DNA of 41,843 nucleotides from a bacterium (GTDB lineage Bacteria; Patescibacteriota; Minisyncoccia; Phycocordibacterales; UBA6899). Positions 30,114 through 37,787 of the stretch are shown here, one piece after another; position 1 is the first letter of the stretch; every line of letters starts with the position of its first letter. The stretch lies in assembly GCA_043736515.1 (NCBI GenBank), contig JAYTCK010000069.1, forward strand, positions 1 through 41,843, in the 5' to 3' direction. The notes below the pieces were generated by a model that saw nothing but the letters and a program-made list of their open reading frames with translations, ran no database searches and was not told the origin of the DNA. Both the position numbers and the translations under genes were made by a program.

Positions 30114-30216
30114 CTGTAAATTATTTTGCCGCCCACAAAGGGCGGCTTTCTTTTTGACAAGAAAATGGTTGTGTGTTAATTTCATTTGTAGTTTTGACCT
30201 TTACCGTAGGAGCATA

Positions 30217-30834
30217 ATGGAAAAGCAAACTGCCAAGATCGTGATTGGGCCCACGGATGCAATCGTCTTAGTTGACGGTAATAACGACTTTGCTCACCCC
30301 AAAGGTGCCTTGTACTCAAAAGGATTTCCCGGCGAATCCTCAAGTAGGCTGATCGTTAAACACATTCACACCCTTTTTCCGAAACCTTTCGGATATCGCA
30401 TCGCAACGTTTGACCAGCACCCTGCTACTGGACATATCGAATTTGGGATGTATGGCGAGCATGTTGTCAAAGGAACTTGGGGTGCCGAATATCTCGACAG
30501 CCTGAAGCCGCTCTTGTCGCATATGGATTTTCTCTCCTACAAGGGCGAAAATCCGGCGCTGATCAGCTACTCGATCATGGTGAGCTCCTCGTTTGGTGAA
30601 ATGATTGCAGCGATGCGCGCAAAGGGCATCACGCGAGTGTTTGTCGTCGGATGGATGTATACACACTGCGCCGGACTTTCTGCGATCGCATTTGCAACAC
30701 AAGCTTTTGAAGTGTTCGTCATCAGGGACGCGACGCTCAGTGTTTCTGCGAAATTTGGCGGTGACCCGGAACGGATGAAAAAACAACTTGGCATGGAGGG
30801 CGTGAAGGAGATCACCATGGCCGACATCGCGTAA
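30217..30834 (+). CDS. pncA: Nicotinamidase/pyrazinamidase-like (second isochorismatase-family gene)
   Basis: VDGNNDFAHPKGAL, TFDQHP, EHVVKGTWGAE, YKG, VVGWMYTHC and VIRDAT motifs; adjacent to nadD. Confidence 0.75.
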   Translation: MEKQTAKIVIGPTDAIVLVDGNNDFAHPKGALYSKGFPGESSSRLIVKHIHTLFPKPFGYRIATFDQHPATGHIEFGMYGEHVVKGTWGAEYLDSLKPLLSHMDFLSYKGENPALISYSIMVSSSFGEMIAAMRAKGITRVFVVGWMYTHCAGLSAIAFATQAFEVFVIRDATLSVSAKFGGDPERMKKQLGMEGVKEITMADIA

Positions 30835-30854
30835 CAGTTCTTTTGAGAAACAGC

Positions 30855-30879
30855 AACCGACTCACTGAGTCGGTTTTTT
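30855..30879 (+). terminator. Intrinsic terminator
   Basis: aaccgactca-c-tgagtcggtt followed by a T run. Confidence 0.7.
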
Positions 30880-30900
30880 GATATTTACATTTACGATTAG

Positions 30901-30921
30901 TTTGTGTATTATATACACTAA
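30901..30921. promoter_or_regulatory. Putative NrtR operator 3, abutting the nadD start codon
   Basis: tttgtgta-ttata-tacactaa; the last base is the A of the ATG. Confidence 0.72.
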
Positions 30922-31580
30922 TGAATCCTGAGCGAACGAAACGACTTGTCGTGACGGGGTCGGCAGTCAATCCTATTTCCCGTGCGCATCGTGATTGTGT
31001 CGAAGTATTAACGCACTCGGGCCATTTTGATCAGGTGCGTTTTTTTCCTTCAGGATTACGCAAAGACAAGCCGCACTTGATCCACTCTCTGCATCGTGTG
31101 CGCATGGCCCTGCTTGCGTTTGATGAGGAGTGGAAGAAGAGACAGCCGATTCCATTTCATGTTGACCTCCGCGAAGCTTTTCGCGAGAGCATTCCGACCA
31201 TTTATTTATTAGAGGAATTGCAGAAAGAATATCCCGATTACGAAATTGTCTTTGCAGCGGGTGTTGATGTGCTCGAACCTCGAGAATGCCTTCTCGGAAA
31301 GTCCGAGGTGCATTCATGGGATGAAGGAGAGCGGCTGATGAAAGATTGGACGTTTGCTGTCTTTCCGCGTGATGGGTATGCCGATCCCGTACTCCTCAAA
31401 GAAGAGGGGAAGCTCCCGAGTCACTTCATTGTGCTTCCGCCTACTCCCGAGGAGACACGATTGATTTCCAGTACGGAGATCAGGAAACGTGCTGGAGTAG
31501 GGCTTCCTATCGAGCACCTCGTCCACCCTAGTGTTGCGGACTATATCAGGGAACATAAGCTCTATTCCTACGATACCTAA
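30921..31580 (+). CDS. nadD: Nicotinate-nucleotide adenylyltransferase-like
   Basis: GSAVNPISRAH (divergent HxGH), HRVRMALLA, TIYLLEEL, AGVD, ISSTEIR and VADYIREHKLY. Confidence 0.82.
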   Translation: MNPERTKRLVVTGSAVNPISRAHRDCVEVLTHSGHFDQVRFFPSGLRKDKPHLIHSLHRVRMALLAFDEEWKKRQPIPFHVDLREAFRESIPTIYLLEELQKEYPDYEIVFAAGVDVLEPRECLLGKSEVHSWDEGERLMKDWTFAVFPRDGYADPVLLKEEGKLPSHFIVLPPTPEETRLISSTEIRKRAGVGLPIEHLVHPSVADYIREHKLYSYDT

Positions 31581-31694: not shown

Positions 31695-32360
31695 ATGAGT
31701 GCCAAAAGCATATGTGACATGGGGCTGACTCAAACCTCCGAATTCGTGGCTTCGCTCGGGAGGGCTGGTTTTACTGCCAACCTTGCGCAGCAGATCATCA
31801 CCGCTCCCGACAACGCGCTGGCCAAAACCATGTACGCTGCGCTTTCTGGTGCCACAACGCTCGACTCCCGCTTCGCGCTCGTCACAACGTTCGACATCAC
31901 CGTTCCCGCCGACTACGTGCACGCAACCCAGCTCGCCACGTTCAAGAAGGAATACGCAAAGCAGTGTTACTTCTACAACGAGGCCATCACCGATGCGAAC
32001 TTCGCCAAGGCCACGACCAAACTCACCCCCGGACGCAAGTTCAAAGTGAAAGTGTTCAAGCAAGCGGTTGCCGGAACGACGACATCCGAAGAGCTGATGG
32101 CGTTCCTTCGAAGCCAGAAAGCCATCTTCACCGGTGCACAAGGCGCCTCCCTCGTCTTCGCACAGAAGCGTCAAGAGCTCCCGAAGGGCTACTGGTACTG
32201 CTCGTTCGACGAGAAAGAAGCTCTCTTCGAAGACGCGGGCGGTTACCGCGGGGTGCCGCGCGTGAGCGCCGACTCCGATGGCGACTTCGATTTCTACCTC
32301 GGCTACTTCGAGGGGCCCTGGCATGACGGGCCCTGCCTCCTGTGCTTCTGCGACGAATAG
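31695..32360 (+). CDS. DGR target (variable) protein with C-terminal variable region
   Basis: Last ~41 codons match the downstream TR except at TR adenines; AAAGGA RBS; no signal peptide seen. Confidence 0.92.
   Translation: MSAKSICDMGLTQTSEFVASLGRAGFTANLAQQIITAPDNALAKTMYAALSGATTLDSRFALVTTFDITVPADYVHATQLATFKKEYAKQCYFYNEAITDANFAKATTKLTPGRKFKVKVFKQAVAGTTTSEELMAFLRSQKAIFTGAQGASLVFAQKRQELPKGYWYCSFDEKEALFEDAGGYRGVPRVSADSDGDFDFYLGYFEGPWHDGPCLLCFCDE
32233..32354 (+). repeat. DGR variable repeat (VR)
   Basis: 122-bp ungapped match to 32695-32816 with 17 mismatches, 16 of them opposite TR adenines. Confidence 0.95.
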
Positions 32361-32411
32361 TCCTTGAGAACTTGGGCACTCAGTTTTAAGCCTAAGATAC
32401 TTTGATCCTTC

Positions 32412-32441
32412 TTGCCCCTGCTACTCAGGGGCAATTTTTTT
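32412..32441 (+). terminator. Hairpin downstream of VR (terminator and/or DGR homing stem-loop)
   Basis: ttgcccctg-ctact-caggggcaa followed by a T run, about 50 bp after the target stop. Confidence 0.7.
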
Positions 32442-32694
32442 ACCAAAAATTTTGTTATACTATTTCTCGGATAGTAGATTATGCATGCGGCCACGGTTTC
32501 ATGCGATCGAATTCTCATGAAAGGAACTTGTGAGAATTCACCGGACACGTCTTGTGAATGGGTGCGGCCTTTTATGAAAAAAATCAAATAAGTCGGTGCG
32601 GCGTGTCGGGAGTTCTGACTCCAAATAAAATACAGGGGGTGGCCGGTGCCGCTTTCAGTGGTATTGATGGCGCGCTGTACAAAGAGCTCGGGGC

Positions 32695-32816
32695 ACGCGG
32701 ACGGTTACCACAGGGTGCCGAACGTGAACGCCAACTCCGATGGCGACTTCGATTTCAACCTCGGCAACTTCGAGAAGCCCTGGAATGACGAGAACTGCCT
32801 CCTGTGCCTCTGCAAC
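32695..32816 (+). ncRNA. DGR template repeat (TR)
   Basis: Adenine-rich counterpart of VR: 29 A, with 7 AAC codons plus AAT and AAG in the VR frame; intergenic. Confidence 0.95.
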
Positions 32817-32827
32817 TCATTTATTTT

Positions 32828-32852
32828 CTCCCACTCTACTTGTGAGTGGGAG
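32828..32852. other. Hairpin just 3' of TR, overlapping the avd stop codon
   Basis: ctcccactc-tacttgt-gagtgggag. Confidence 0.7.
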
Positions 32853-33183
32853 TTTTGTCTGCGAGACTCTTTTTCCATCCGCCGAGCATGCGCCCGACCT
32901 CATCGAGAAGTACAATGAATTTTCCATATGCGGTATGGTCTACGATCTTGTGCTCCCAGGCTATTTGCAGGAAAAACTTGAGCAGGTCGCATTTACCTGC
33001 CGCACTTCCCACAAGAGATAGTTTCTCAAATATATCGTGGGCGAATGTCGCACGAAAGAGGGTTTCCAAAAGCGCAGTAAAAGTATTGTCAATTGCAACG
33101 CCGATAGTGTAGCGGTCAACGCGCTTTATATTTTCCAGATATTCATGCCATAATTTGTACGCTTCCTTTGCGCGCACAAGCAC
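32836..33183 (-). CDS. avd: Avd-like four-helix-bundle accessory protein (5' end possibly frameshifted at the G10 tract)
   Basis: RYTIGVAID...LLE, DLLKFFLQIAWE and LDEVGRMLGGWKK are bAvd-like signatures; located between TR and RT. Confidence 0.88.
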   Translation of the reverse strand: MLVRAKEAYKLWHEYLENIKRVDRYTIGVAIDNTFTALLETLFRATFAHDIFEKLSLVGSAAGKCDLLKFFLQIAWEHKIVDHTAYGKFIVLLDEVGRMLGGWKKSLADKTPTHK

Positions 33184-33199
33184 AAGCGGGACTTGAGCT

Positions 33200-33209
33200 G
33201 GGGGGGGGG
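33200..33209. repeat. G10 homopolymer at the avd/RT junction
   Basis: gagct-gggggggggg-tgac. Confidence 0.9.
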
Positions 33210-34198
33210 TGACTTATTGGTGCATGCTGACTCATACGTACGATTCTCTCATTTCCATTGAAAATCTCCTAGTGACGTGGGAGCGATTTTTACGCGGAAA
33301 GTGTCACCGAAAAGACATCATAAATTTTCAGGGTACGTTGGCGGATAATATCGTGACCCTCCAACGTGACCTTGCCACTCGCACTTACGCACATGGCGTA
33401 TATTTGGCGTTTAACATCTCAGACCCAAAGCCGCGTAATATTCATAAGGCAAACGTTAGGGACAGATTGCTTCATCATCTTATTTATAAAGAACTCTATG
33501 TGTATTTCCACCAGCGATTTATTTACGATTCCTACTCGTGCCGTCCCGACAAAGGAACACATCGCGCCCTTGACCGTTTTCGGTTATTTGCTCGTGGTGT
33601 GTCAAAAAATAATACGCGGACATGCTTTGTGCTCAAGTGTGACGTGAAAAAGTTCTTTGCAAGCATAGACCATGAAATACTCCGCAACATACTTGCACGA
33701 CATATTGCAGATGCAGAATTGCGCAGTCTTATCGAGGCTGTTGTTTCAAGTTTTTCAAGTACTGCGCCAAGCAAAGGTCTTCCGCTCGGTAATTTAACAT
33801 CGCAGCTTCTTGTGAATGTGTACATGCACGAATTTGATATGTATATGAAACAAGCACTTCGCGTGAAACACTATATTCGCTATGCAGATGACTTTGTGAT
33901 TTTTTCAGAAGATAAAGGTTATCTTGAAAATCTTTTACTCTCGATAGATACATTTTTGAGCGAAAAATTAAAACTCACACTTCATCCGGACAAGGTATAT
34001 ATCAAAACGTATGCTTCGGGCGTCGACTTTTTAGGCTGGGTACACTTTCCTCATCATCGACAAATTCGCACCGCAACAAAACGAAAAATCGTGAAAGCAT
34101 TGAAGGGCTATCCAAAGCGAGAAACAGTGAGTTCGCATAGAGGGCTGCTTGCTCATGGGGACACATTTGGGTTAAGGAAGCGCTTGGGGGTGGAGTAG
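33209..34198 (+). CDS. DGR-type reverse transcriptase (start GTG 33209 or ATG 33224)
   Basis: PKPRNI, RDRLLHH, DSYSCRPDKGTH, KCDVKKFFASIDH, GLPLGNLTSQ, YIRYADDFVI and VDFLGW; compact, with no maturase or endonuclease tail. Confidence 0.95.
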   Translation: MTYWCMLTHTYDSLISIENLLVTWERFLRGKCHRKDIINFQGTLADNIVTLQRDLATRTYAHGVYLAFNISDPKPRNIHKANVRDRLLHHLIYKELYVYFHQRFIYDSYSCRPDKGTHRALDRFRLFARGVSKNNTRTCFVLKCDVKKFFASIDHEILRNILARHIADAELRSLIEAVVSSFSSTAPSKGLPLGNLTSQLLVNVYMHEFDMYMKQALRVKHYIRYADDFVIFSEDKGYLENLLLSIDTFLSEKLKLTLHPDKVYIKTYASGVDFLGWVHFPHHRQIRTATKRKIVKALKGYPKRETVSSHRGLLAHGDTFGLRKRLGVE

Positions 34199-34362: not shown

Positions 34363-35670
34363 ATGACTGATTTTGTGCGTCACACGATGCGTCCGGAGAA
34401 GAACGACTGGATCCATCGCTCACCCTGCGATATCGATTTTTACAAGTACACGATGGGGTATTACATCTATACGTATTTTCCGGATACGGAAGTTACGTTT
34501 GAACTCATCGTGCGCGACAAGACAATCCCTATTGCAGATGTGATCGACGAGCGCGAACTCTGTGAACAACTTGAACACGCACGGCAGTGCCGTTACGATT
34601 TCACCACGCTGTCATGGCTCGGTGGAATGCGCGTATACGGTGCGAACATGTTCTCGAATGAATACGTGTACGACTTCTTGGAAAAGTACCGGCTTCCTGA
34701 GTTCCGATTGGAGCGCAAGGGAAGCGGATTCAATATCACATTTCGCGGGACGTGGAAACTTGCGACCTTCTGGGAGACGATCGCGCTTTCCGTTGTAAAC
34801 GAGCTCTACTATCGCTCGCTCATGCGCCGCATGTCCGAAACAGAAGTCGATATTTTGTTTGCTCGCGCGAAAGCAAAACTGTGGGACAAGCTGCAGCGAC
34901 TCAAAGCATATCCCGACCTGAAGTTCATGGGTTTCGAAACACGCCGCAGGTTCAGTTTCAGGTGGCAACACTTCGAGGCGCAATTATGCAAACAGGAAAT
35001 GGGCGCACAGTACCTCGGTGTCTCGAACACGTGGATCGCCTTCAACCAAAGCATCATCCCTATGGGTACCAATGCGCACGAACTACCTATGGTTGAAGTC
35101 GCACTTGCGAATACGTCCGAGGAAAAACGAAGAGCTCAGTACGATGTGTGTGCAAAATGGGAAAAGCTTTATGGCGTCGGTCTACGTATTCTCCTTCCTG
35201 ATGCCTTCGGTACGCCGCAGTTTCTTCTCGGCGCACCAGAGCGGCTCGCACATGAATGGAAGGGTTTACGGCAGGACTCAGGGTGTCCGATAGAGATCGG
35301 CGAGCTCTACATTGCGTGGCTCGAGTCTCATCACATCGACCCCTGCACGAAACTCCTGATCTTCTCTGACGGACTTGACGTCGACGACATGATCAAATTG
35401 CATCTTCATTTCAATGGGCGCATCAATGTTTCCTTCGGGTGGGGTACGCTTTTGGGAAATGATTTCCGCGACTGCTATCCGCGCGAGGGAGAAATCGCAG
35501 CGCTGTTCCGTCCAATCTCGATGGCATGCAAGGTCGTCGAAGCCAATGGCCGTCCTGTTGTGAAATTCTCGGACACAAAAGGTAAAGTGACCGGCGACCC
35601 CGTCGTCGCAGAGGAGTATCGCAAGATCTTCGGCGTTGGTAATGCTGTGGAGCGTGCGATCATCGTCTGA
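34363..35670 (+). CDS. pncB: Nicotinate phosphoribosyltransferase
   Basis: DIDFYKYTM, WETIALS, FETRRRFS, GTNAHE, RQDSG, IFSDGL, SFGWGT and VKFSD motifs. Confidence 0.93.
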   Translation: MTDFVRHTMRPEKNDWIHRSPCDIDFYKYTMGYYIYTYFPDTEVTFELIVRDKTIPIADVIDERELCEQLEHARQCRYDFTTLSWLGGMRVYGANMFSNEYVYDFLEKYRLPEFRLERKGSGFNITFRGTWKLATFWETIALSVVNELYYRSLMRRMSETEVDILFARAKAKLWDKLQRLKAYPDLKFMGFETRRRFSFRWQHFEAQLCKQEMGAQYLGVSNTWIAFNQSIIPMGTNAHELPMVEVALANTSEEKRRAQYDVCAKWEKLYGVGLRILLPDAFGTPQFLLGAPERLAHEWKGLRQDSGCPIEIGELYIAWLESHHIDPCTKLLIFSDGLDVDDMIKLHLHFNGRINVSFGWGTLLGNDFRDCYPREGEIAALFRPISMACKVVEANGRPVVKFSDTKGKVTGDPVVAEEYRKIFGVGNAVERAIIV

Positions 35671-35810
35671 TTTGTTTTGTGAAATGTTTTTGGCGGAGGG
35701 AGACAGTTATCTCTCCGCCCACTTCTTGAGCTCTGTATATTGTGAGATATCTCCAATATAGAGCGCTCAATGAGTGTAAGATCTTTGTTAATTGATTAAA
35801 AGGAAATCCT

Positions 35811-37787
35811 ATGCGTCTCATTAAACTTGCGGGCCTCAATATTGATACGACGGTCGGAAAAATGGAGGGTAATTACAAAGCCCTCCTTTCGGCGTCGGTG
35901 CGTGCGGCAAGAGCCAACGCCACGATTGCTGCATCGCCCGAGATGGTGCTGTGCGGCTATCCAGCCGAAGACCTCGTGCACTGGCAAGGCTTTGTTGATC
36001 AGGAGTGGCAGTATCTCAAACGTTTTGCAGCAGAGACAAAGGCATTCGACACGGTTTTTGTTATTGGGCTTGCCGTCTTTTATGATGACGGTGTCTATAA
36101 TTGTGCCGCTGTCGTGAATCATGGAAAGATCCTCGGTATCGTTCCGAAAGAAAAACTTCCGACGTATGGCGTGTTCTACGACATGCGTACATTTGCGCGC
36201 GGGATCCCGGGACTTCACGGCGAAAAAGAAGGTATTCCGTTCGGTGATATTGTATTTGATCTCCCGTTCGGGAAGTTTGCTGTCGAGGTGTGTGAAGACT
36301 CCTGGTCTCCAGATGGTCCTATGAAGCGCCGCGCATACGCCGGTGCTGAGATCGTCGTGAGCATCAACGGCTCACCCTGGCGCGCAGGTGTTATTGATAC
36401 GCGTCGTGAAATGCTTGCAACGCGTTCATCCGACAACTACTGCACCCTGCTCTACGTCAACGGGGTTGGTGGCATGGATGCGCTTGTTCTTGATGGAGGA
36501 GGATTCGTCTTTCAGAACGGACAGAAGATGCATGAGGCAAAACGCTGGCAGGAAGGCGAGTGGACGCAGGTTGTTGATCTCGATCGCACACGGCTTTCAC
36601 GCAGTGCAAACACAACGCGTCGTATTGATGCGGAAGAATACCGCACCTCAAAAGCACCGATGCCACGGGTGATCCGCTACGAAGATGGCCCAAAGGCAAA
36701 CAATGCGGCGCTTACATATCCGATTCCTAAGGCAAAAAGTTTCATGATTCCCGCACTTCCCGAAGGCCCTACTCAGAGTAATCGCGAAGCATACTTCGAA
36801 GAACTCATTGCGGCGATAGTGTTAGGGTACAAAGGATATTTTGAGAAATCCGGCGTATTCAACTCCACACTCATCGCACTTTCGGGTGGTCGTGACTCTG
36901 CACTCACGCTACTTCTCATCTACATATATGCGAAGGAGCATTTTGCGGGAGAAAAAGACAGCACACAAAAGATACGCAACTTCATTCGCTGTGTATCAAT
37001 GCCAAGCAAGTTCAATTCGGCGACGACCAAGTCGATTGCGCGCGAACTCTCTGAAGAGCTTGGCGTGACATTCGAGGAGCGTCCGATCGATGAAGCATTT
37101 GAACGCGAGCTCGCGGAATTGCGCACACAGCTCGGAGACAAGGAGCCCGATCCTGTGGCGGTACAAAACATTATGCCCCGTATTCGTATGACACGAATGC
37201 AGAATCTCTCAAACGCAACGGGATCGTTACTGGTTCATTGCGGCAACATGACAGAGAAGGCACTTGGCTACGGCACTATTGGGGGAGACTTCACTGCGGG
37301 AGCATATTCGCTTTTAGGTAATCTTCCGAAGTCAGTTGTACGCGCGCTCATCGCGCATTTGCGTAGCACGAGGTTTCCTCTCGCTTCGCTTGACGCACTC
37401 ATTGCATCGGAAGAGTCAGCCGAACTTGCAGATGATCAGCGTGATGAGGATGACATCGGCTCCATTGAAGTGCTCGATGCGTGCATCCACCTCTTTTACG
37501 GCGAAAAGCTGATGCCGCACGAAGTGTATGGTGTCGTACGCGACAATTGGAGTGACGCTGAGCTTTCACGTATGTACCCCGGGTATAAAAAGGGGCTGCT
37601 CAAGAAATGGGTGAAGGGGTTTGTAAAGATGAGTTATAACACTACCTTTAAGTGGGTTGTTGCTCCTCCTGCGACACATCTCGGCTCGCTCGATCTTGAG
37701 CGTGAACGCGCGATCCAGATCCCTATCGTGAAGTCGATGGAGTGGCTACGTGATTCACTTGCTGCTATTGATAGGATGCCAAATTAA
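35811..37787 (+). CDS. nadE: Glutamine-dependent NAD+ synthetase
   Basis: Nitrilase domain PEMVLCGY / KEKLPTY / VCEDSW; synthetase domain ALSGGRDS, NMTEKALGYGTIGGD and SAELA. Confidence 0.93.
   Translation: MRLIKLAGLNIDTTVGKMEGNYKALLSASVRAARANATIAASPEMVLCGYPAEDLVHWQGFVDQEWQYLKRFAAETKAFDTVFVIGLAVFYDDGVYNCAAVVNHGKILGIVPKEKLPTYGVFYDMRTFARGIPGLHGEKEGIPFGDIVFDLPFGKFAVEVCEDSWSPDGPMKRRAYAGAEIVVSINGSPWRAGVIDTRREMLATRSSDNYCTLLYVNGVGGMDALVLDGGGFVFQNGQKMHEAKRWQEGEWTQVVDLDRTRLSRSANTTRRIDAEEYRTSKAPMPRVIRYEDGPKANNAALTYPIPKAKSFMIPALPEGPTQSNREAYFEELIAAIVLGYKGYFEKSGVFNSTLIALSGGRDSALTLLLIYIYAKEHFAGEKDSTQKIRNFIRCVSMPSKFNSATTKSIARELSEELGVTFEERPIDEAFERELAELRTQLGDKEPDPVAVQNIMPRIRMTRMQNLSNATGSLLVHCGNMTEKALGYGTIGGDFTAGAYSLLGNLPKSVVRALIAHLRSTRFPLASLDALIASEESAELADDQRDEDDIGSIEVLDACIHLFYGEKLMPHEVYGVVRDNWSDAELSRMYPGYKKGLLKKWVKGFVKMSYNTTFKWVVAPPATHLGSLDLERERAIQIPIVKSMEWLRDSLAAIDRMPN

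Follow-up and report, generated by a model that had tools for sequence, protein, structure and literature searches.

A conserved, length-variable C-run between the start and the core of avd is a candidate switch on a Patescibacteria diversity-generating retroelement

Phase-variable genes of Campylobacter, Neisseria, Haemophilus and Helicobacter carry poly-G/C contingency loci in their 5' coding regions, in which a G/C homopolymer of ~8-12 nt early in the open reading frame (ORF) sets the frame, differs in length among close relatives and is kept as a homopolymer despite synonymous codons. Hypermutable repeats also control genes that generate diversity or reprogramme many genes, by repeat-length change in mutL and in the phase-variable mod methyltransferases of phasevarions. 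Other homopolymer frameshifts are rescued during expression, by transcriptional slippage (endosymbiont poly(A), dnaX, insertion sequence (IS) elements) or by +1 ribosomal shifting on CCC-C; CCC-C favours +1 shifting of tRNA-Pro, and RNA polymerase can slip on long homopolymers. Simple-sequence contingency loci are treated in the accessible portions of PMC3315296, 10.1101/2021.05.14.444138 and PMC11868660, and the accessible portion of bioRxiv 10.1101/2025.10.21.683753 describes coliphage contingency loci with hypermutable tracts, reversible frameshifts and bet-hedging. For diversity-generating retroelements (DGRs), the bAvd pentamer binds the reverse transcriptase (RT), and the accessible text of PMC10053308 gives it as required for cDNA synthesis and calls the accessory protein Avd 'essential to retrohoming'. 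The present analysis concerns the DGR in a 41,843-nt stretch of a Patescibacteria genome (contig JAYTCK010000069.1, assembly GCA_043736515.1; hereafter the window), in which avd is a two-part ORF joined by a labile repeat, a run of ten C (C10). The conserved tract may well switch Avd at the DNA level (estimated probability ~0.55), the window being in the out-of-frame (+1) state; switching within populations and an effect on mutagenesis are what we infer from it.

The avd tract shares the anatomy of the bacterial poly-G/C contingency loci, namely a G/C homopolymer early in the ORF that sets the frame, varies among close relatives and persists where synonymous codons would serve. It is unlike them in its Patescibacteria host, in gating a DGR accessory protein and not a surface or modification gene, and in being conserved over a deep family (identity down to 42-50%) with an out-of-frame consensus dominating the assemblies analyzed. 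The mutL and mod systems likewise put a diversity-generating gene under a hypermutable repeat, whereas the mutator linked to avd is targeted (A-specific, one variable repeat) and not genome-wide. The coliphage loci, as described in the accessible portion of their source, also place a hypermutable frameshifting tract in a mobile or diversifying element, but their genes are not DGR components.

The DGR cassette was identified by profile matches. The RT gave a Pfam RVT_1 match, and its best NCBIfam hits were all under the cutoffs (none of these models being specific to DGR RTs). Avd matched Pfam bAvd (PF22296, 41.3 bits, cutoff = 40) and, under its cutoff of 80, NCBIfam DivGenRetAVD (NF033474, 50.8 bits). 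The template repeat (TR) lies ~400 nt upstream of the RT, and avd lies between the two on the opposite strand. Over 122 nt, TR and the variable repeat (VR) have 17 mismatches, of which 16 coincide with adenines of TR, and the DGR therefore worked in the past. An AlphaFold2 (AF2) model of the 125-aa Avd-frame translation was a four-helix bundle (mean predicted local distance difference test, pLDDT = 91.3; helices at residues 10-26, 37-57, 61-87 and 93-119). Residues 1-9 were modelled as coil, helix 1 beginning at residue 10, so the N-terminal extension is a short disordered tail. The bAvd of Bordetella phage BPP-1 is similar in its bAvd family, four-helix bundle, adjoining DGR RT and adenine-specific TR/VR; it differs from the window gene, in which avd is on the opposite strand between TR and RT, the starts overlap by 12 nt, the tail bears a repeat and the NCBIfam score falls short (50.8 vs. 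80).

The tract occupies 33209-33200 of the minus strand (G10 on the plus strand) and is the sole G/C run of at least 8 nt in the 41,843 nt, the runner-up runs being 7 nt long. By chance, the expected number of runs of at least 10 nt was 0.013 for G under a first-order Markov model and 0.05 for G or C with independent and identically distributed bases. From ATG 33235, eight further codons are read (SQHAPISH), the final CAC using the first C of C10; this frame reads MSQHAPISHPPP, after which the Avd frame is lost. With C10 as assembled the translation is MSQHAPISHPPPSSSPACACARKGSVQIMA, ended at 30 aa by TGA 33145-33143. A one-base step at C10 was modelled by translating CCCA as a single Pro codon, and ATG 33235 then reads MSQHAPISHPPPAQVPLVLVRAKEAY..., open through all 123 residues translated. 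The Avd frame contains TAA 33216-33214, and the first start codon thereafter is GTG 33183, giving 115 aa with the end at 32836. A preliminary description of this DNA had set out the same arrangement (ATG 33235, C10, loss of frame, an upstream TAA and GTG 33183 as the first start), which was confirmed on the minus strand, and its statement that a one-base change restores Avd agreed with the one-base-step translation, which is open and homologue-like from M1.

Species-representative genomes were scanned with the Avd alignment; 355 stretches matched, of which 259 encode relatives, and the best 80 loci were analyzed, anchored on the invariant W22 (81 sequences including the window). These best 80 loci are labelled mostly Patescibacteria or unclassified 'bacterium' metagenome-assembled genomes (MAGs), with ~12 labelled otherwise (Gammaproteobacteria, Bdellovibrionales, Thermodesulfovibrionales). 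A C-run of at least 7 nt was found at the same place in 70/80 loci, with lengths of 7-15 nt and a mode of 10. Including the window (n = 71), the lengths were distributed as C7 = 5, C8 = 9, C9 = 9, C10 = 30, C11 = 12, C12 = 2, C13 = 2, C14 = 1 and C15 = 1. This tract accounts for 65 of the 68 G/C runs of at least 8 nt in 547,780 nt of related loci (median GC content = 42%), and it is kept in the most distant loci (L074-L080, Avd identity 42-50%).

Ten loci were without a C-run of at least 7 nt. Seven of these are repeat-free (L020, L043, L058, L063, L065, L067, L069), and the canonical ATG is in frame in 7/7. Two carry a dinucleotide repeat in place of the C-run, ~60-80 nt 5' of W22 ((CA)13 in L041 and (CA)11 in L047), and one (L009) has an interrupted run; all three are out of frame. 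Repeats of other kinds were seen in the protein N-termini, as THTHTH tails from (CA)n and, in more distant Avd (P0142, P0154, P0171), as RERERERE and LSLSLSLS, which judged from the protein would correspond to (GA)n and (CT)n. The occurrence of different repeat types at one site points to selection for mutability of the DNA. Other repeat types at the same N-terminal position were noted in P0025, P0069, P0142, P0154 and P0171. In L029, a G27 run at position 2866, which lies 175 nt 5' of W22, resembles a poly-G artefact.

Frame state was scored from the upstream ATG whose reading frame stays open as far as the run. Across the 71 run-bearing sequences, the Avd core was in frame in 9, needed +1 in 41 (including the window), needed -1 in 19 and had no upstream ATG in 2, i.e. 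the upstream ATG was in frame with the core in 9/69 and out of frame in 60/69. The in-frame state was found in 9/72 repeat-bearing and 7/7 repeat-free sequences (Fisher, P = 4e-6), therefore selection acts on both parts of the ORF, and the repeat is the only place where the frame breaks. A stricter, independent definition (ATG-N6-CAT with the reverse strand reading M..H.[Y/F]) selected 43 sequences, of which 4 were in frame, 26 needed +1 and 13 needed -1; the frame from the ATG to the run was open in 43/43, against 13/47 and 15/39 for the other frames over the same stretch. The Avd core was intact in 81/81 sequences (113-121 aa), and pseudogene decay was ruled out on this count.

A homopolymer assembly or sequencing error, with a true tract of C9 and an intact gene, had been offered as an alternative in the preliminary description. 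Homopolymers are error-prone, L014 and L031 come from long-read assemblies (as the contig names suggest), and the contigs of L045, L066 and L068 end within ~100 nt of the tract. A one-off error is unlikely because many studies and assemblers contributed the run-bearing sequences, and 60/69 of these are out of frame, against 7/7 repeat-free sequences in frame; an error rate of ~90% at a single site would be needed. The nearest relatives were also called short (P0001 with 99% core identity, P0002/L001 and P0272). Such an error does not explain the family-wide pattern and is considered very improbable. The contig ends near the tract may mark a site at which assembly broke off because it is heterogeneous or difficult to read.

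To place the frame states on a phylogeny, a tree was built from RT and Avd core sequences by a quick method (LG+G4), using 54/81 rows, the 27 rows without a confidently delimited RT being omitted. Frame state required 14 changes on this tree, compared with 14.6 in shuffles, and 209/500 shuffles were as low, i.e. there was no phylogenetic signal. The states scattered on this 54-row tree ruled out a clade-fixed frameshift. Sister sequences were found in unlike states, among them the window (C10, +1) and L001 (C8, -1), as well as L048/L059, L049/L053 and L016/L037. At the protein level, clusters formed at 90% identity contained long and short forms together. P0003 (MSEHKIVPPPAQ..., 1 contig), P0004 (VNIKSYPPPAQ..., 62 contigs) and P0052 (VLVRAKE..., 3 contigs) have three different N-terminal states with cores identical across the 104 positions compared; judging from the codons, the N-termini of P0003 and P0004 would be one DNA sequence with C9 and with C10, respectively, and P0052 would be another length.

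Homologous proteins were searched with the 125-aa Avd-frame translation, including VTPPPAQVPL, and 256 proteins were retained at E ≤ 1e-3 among 269 candidates. As the query carried the tail, the best 120 of these 256 are a biased sample of frame states and were excluded from frequencies; 36 of the best 120 have 113-115 aa and start within LVLVRAKE, 83 are longer, and 1 was not anchorable. Among these 83 longer proteins the tail contained PPP in 46 and the M..H motif (MSEH, MSQH, MNKH) in 49. Natural full-length homologues start MS(E/Q)H...PPPxQxPLVLV, and the one-base-step product of the window aligned from M1 across the junction, end to end, with nine natural long forms; the N-terminal extension is therefore a real family feature. 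The poly-Pro extension encoded by variable C-runs, which the preliminary description had proposed to look for, is thus present as MS(E/Q)H...PPP in many homologues, and these do not uniformly begin at the GTG-equivalent position with no extension upstream.

The related loci bear on whether GTG 33183 is the working start, which would yield a tail-less 115-aa Avd regardless of the tract and leave the G-run to serve spacing or a divergent RT promoter leader. Public annotation of this contig uses the GTG (P0271, 115 aa). With the AF2 bundle beginning at residue 10, the GTG product would lose just the invariant P9 and L10 of Avd and keep the bundle. Some start codon occurs at L10-V13 in 42/63 out-of-frame sequences, but also in 11/16 in-frame sequences (Fisher, P = 1.0), and a GTG at V11 is found in 24/63 and 7/16, respectively. 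In 17/63 out-of-frame sequences the stretch that extends from the last stop until 5 codons short of W22 contains no ATG, GTG or TTG, and the nearest relative, L001, has GTA at the codon equivalent to GTG 33183. P9, V11 and L12 do not vary, and the PL codons show synonymous variation, which places the usual start of translation upstream. GTG 33183 also has neither of the two contexts found at other window genes (AGGAG and TATAAT-N6). On the RT strand, the run is often followed by a TA-rich, -10-like hexamer 6-7 nt before the RT ATG (L006, L023, L038, L056, L064), whereas the distance from run to RT ATG varies from 9 to 33 nt over 43 sequences, and a sigma-70 scan of 32300-33500 gave one plus-strand site (33125-33154) against 1.3 expected from shuffles. 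A genuine GTG start, also listed as an alternative in the preliminary description, did not hold as the solution of the family, such starts showing no enrichment in out-of-frame loci; GTG 33183 is not supported by these sequences as a conserved family start, and we regard this explanation as improbable.

Two further candidates were set aside on the same counts. Selection for an internal start was rejected for lack of enrichment (42/63 vs. 11/16). The G-run as an RT Shine-Dalgarno element (GGGGGTGA, 11-14 nt before ATG 33224) was rejected as its general function, given the spacing of 9-33 nt over the 43 sequences.

Gene callers place many avd starts at internal GTG, TTG or ATG codons (113-115 aa), as in P0002, P0052, P0059, P0109, P0271, P0274 and others, and some annotations start at chance upstream codons in another frame, e.g. 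VNIKSY... in P0004. Database N-termini of this Avd family are therefore unreliable.

The frame counts also raise the possibility that the start is at ATG 33235 in every cell and that the frame is corrected on the C-run, either by slippage of RNA polymerase, the run matching the RNA:DNA hybrid in length, or by tRNA-Pro shifting +1 (or -1) on CCC-C during poly-proline stalling. Tract length would then tune the dosage of Avd (high when in frame, low at +1, lower at -1) and not act as an on/off switch. Rare in-frame states and a dominant +1 keep slippage at the RNA or ribosomal level alive as an alternative to the DNA switch: out of frame is the norm (60/69), +1 outnumbers -1 (41:19, P = 0.006), no stop interrupts the frame between ATG and run in 43/43, all cores are intact, and the length peak is sharp at 10 in every frame state. 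According to the accessible text of PMC8144416, the Patescibacteria DGR clade is active in at least half of cases. A hairpin of at least 6 bp begins within 3 nt after the run in 24/71 sequences, but is absent from 47/71, among them the window (z = -0.3). The shift has no conserved direction, sister taxa being found in +1, -1 and in-frame states with no phylogenetic signal; (CA)n at the same site is a poor substrate for ribosomal or elongation slippage; the window has no 0-frame stop or other obvious stalling codon directly after the run; and the seven repeat-free in-frame loci mean that constitutive full expression is tolerated. Genes rescued by slippage share with avd a long homopolymer between two conserved ORF parts, both under selection, whose frames disagree at the DNA level in most members; the avd run differs in being C/G and not A/T, in having no conserved shift direction and in its replacement by (CA)n in two loci. 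Correction on the C-run is therefore considered possible, if on the unlikely side. Its strongest form, in which the out-of-frame (+1) state would be the normal working state across this large Patescibacteria DGR family, with Avd made only by C-run slippage (of tRNA-Pro or of polymerase), its dosage and hence targeted hypermutation tracking the translational or nucleotide state of the cell, and the length acting as a heritable dial set by evolution, is judged unlikely.

The AQx and PLV codons, within the first 25 nt after the C-run, make up the post-run hairpin (GCACAAGC-N3/5-GCTTGTGC). Its carriers include L002, L007, L008, L025, L011, L038 and L040, and both arms are altered in L025 and L011 (TCACAAG...CTTGTGA). 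As it occurs in 24/71 sequences only and not in the window, it was rejected as a general part of the element.

The DNA switch was favoured because the tract is built like a classical contingency locus, because (CA)n takes the place of the C-run in two loci and apparent (GA)n and (CT)n tails occur in more distant relatives, and because the states are scattered on the tree. The tract lies between start and core and sets the frame, the repeat is over-represented at this site, and length and frame vary among close relatives; the conserved shift direction of a programmed frameshift was not found (+1 = 41, -1 = 19, in frame = 9, scattered on the tree). In the proposed mechanism, avd would begin at ATG 33235, overlapping the divergent RT start, and its short, presumably disordered tail would run into the poly-C and then into the conserved AQxPLVLV and the predicted four-helix bundle. 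Tract length would determine whether ATG 33235 is in frame with the Avd core. C10 would be one base too long (+1) and give only the 30-aa peptide, and C9 or C12 would give full-length Avd, the in-frame product spanning the junction peptide ...ISHPPPAQVPLVLVR. Tract length would most likely change via slipped-strand mispairing at replication, and only cells with an in-frame tract would make full Avd. Since Avd is reported as essential to retrohoming in the accessible text of PMC10053308, only such in-frame cells would run mutagenic retrohoming, and the outcome would be a hypermutable switch set on a hypermutator.

Several results weigh against the DNA switch in this simple form. The in-frame state lies below the 1/3 expected from free switching (9/69, P = 1.7e-4) and +1 exceeds -1, as given above; these two deviations need the added assumption that the ON state is costly, or else point to recoding. 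The four closest DNA pairs are equal in length (L022/L024 and L038/L040 at C10, L007/L008 at C11, L055/L057 identical), so the consensus length can be stable. One lineage has 62 contigs in one state and 1 and 3 contigs in the others, and these minor states could be assembly errors. In the window the 'off' state may be leaky, as the predicted 115-aa product from GTG 33183 would keep the bundle. According to the accessible text of Roux et al. (PMC8144416), 50-75% of DGRs in every group were recently active, with the Patescibacteria-restricted clade below average; such activity rates would hardly be expected if most consensus alleles were fully off, barring minority cells or leakiness. A lower-than-average but persistent activity of Patescibacteria DGRs fits active minorities or leakiness. 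Either most cells are off as the ON state is costly, or slippage (by RNA polymerase or tRNA-Pro) expresses the out-of-frame alleles. The switch proposed in the preliminary description stood as to a tract that is conserved, length-variable and frame-deciding across the family, and was weakened by an in-frame state rarer than chance and a dominant +1.

The preliminary description had also placed the tract against the RT start, which did not hold, as GTG 33209 is simply the earliest start codon that the open frame contains. The N-terminus of related RTs is M-[F/L]-x-H-x-Y, read from the ATG that corresponds to 33224, and that of the window RT (MLTHTYDSLISIEN) aligns with it. With the RT start at ATG 33224 and not GTG 33209, the tract lies 14 nt upstream of it. 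RT codon 4 (His) and ATG 33235 of avd are reverse complements, therefore the divergent genes overlap by 12 nt (ATG-N6-CAT). In the window (33224-33235) and in 43 related sequences the two starts point apart, and each start codon is the other gene's codon 4 (His). Both starts are without an AGGAG box. The context of ATG 33235 (GAGAAT-N7-ATG) resembles the TATAAT-N6-ATG at several other window genes (543, 3596, 30921), which suggests leaderless mRNAs.

Table. Coordinates of the avd/RT region and its repeats in the window (positions of the whole 41,843-nt stretch)
Feature	Position	Strand	Remarks
C10 tract	33200..33209	-	Pro codons of the Avd N-terminal tail; sets the reading frame; homologous C7-C15 in relatives
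Canonical (ancestral) avd start ATG	33233..33235	-	Reverse complement of RT codon 4; ATG-N6-CAT arrangement in 43 run-bearing sequences
30-codon ORF from the ATG with C10	33143..33235	-	Leaves the Avd frame after PPP; TGA 33145-33143; sequence read by hand
TAA in the Avd frame	33214..33216	-	Immediately 5' of the tract; codon -22 from W22; upstream end of the open Avd frame
Avd-frame open stretch (VTPPPAQVPL + core)	32836..33213	-	Annotated ORF from GTG 33183, 115 aa
DGR reverse transcriptase	33224..34198	+	Likely start ATG 33224; Pfam RVT_1, 2.9e-25; N-terminus MLTHTYDSLISIEN
Template repeat (TR)	32695..32816	+	86% identical to VR
Variable repeat (VR)	32233..32354	+	3' end of target gene 31695..32360

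The setting of the DGR looks chromosomal; it is flanked by NAD-salvage genes (30154-31580 and 34363-37787), namely isochorismatase-like, cytidylyltransferase-like, NAPRTase and NAD synthase with a CN-hydrolase domain. On the plus strand of the window at 32828-32852, directly after TR and spanning the avd stop codon, there is a terminator-like hairpin (9 bp, then TTTTGTCTGC); it could stop the TR transcript ahead of avd antisense. A comparison with Rfam gave no family at the gathering score, the sole row being JA04 at 32367-32450 (26 bits vs. 81, E = 0.72). Proline codons from W22 to the stop in the 81 cores were CCC in 68/101 despite the median GC content of 42%, and the invariant P9 was mostly CCG, CCA or CCT. 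The CCC excess may be a nucleotide-level constraint near the avd 3' end, which adjoins TR.

Full-text searches, one of them on repeats in Patescibacteria, and the accessible portions of the DGR surveys PMC5758913 and PMC8144416 yielded no published repeat, homopolymer or frameshift in avd, subscription papers and supplements being outside the scope of the search. Phase variation by simple sequences is well established, as are DGRs; what would be new is a conserved repeat that gates a DGR accessory gene across a deep lineage. Most avd genes of this family are mis-annotated from an internal GTG, TTG or ATG (113-115 aa), and surveys of DGR 'activity' should score the state of the tract. How cells restrain or time DGR mutagenesis is largely unknown, and the tract points to a conserved, sequence-encoded control point in one of the largest natural DGR reservoirs. 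Were recoding to be true, the C-run would be a widespread new recoding site; if the DNA switch is true, a contingency locus gates a hypermutator, and diversification would be limited to a subpopulation.

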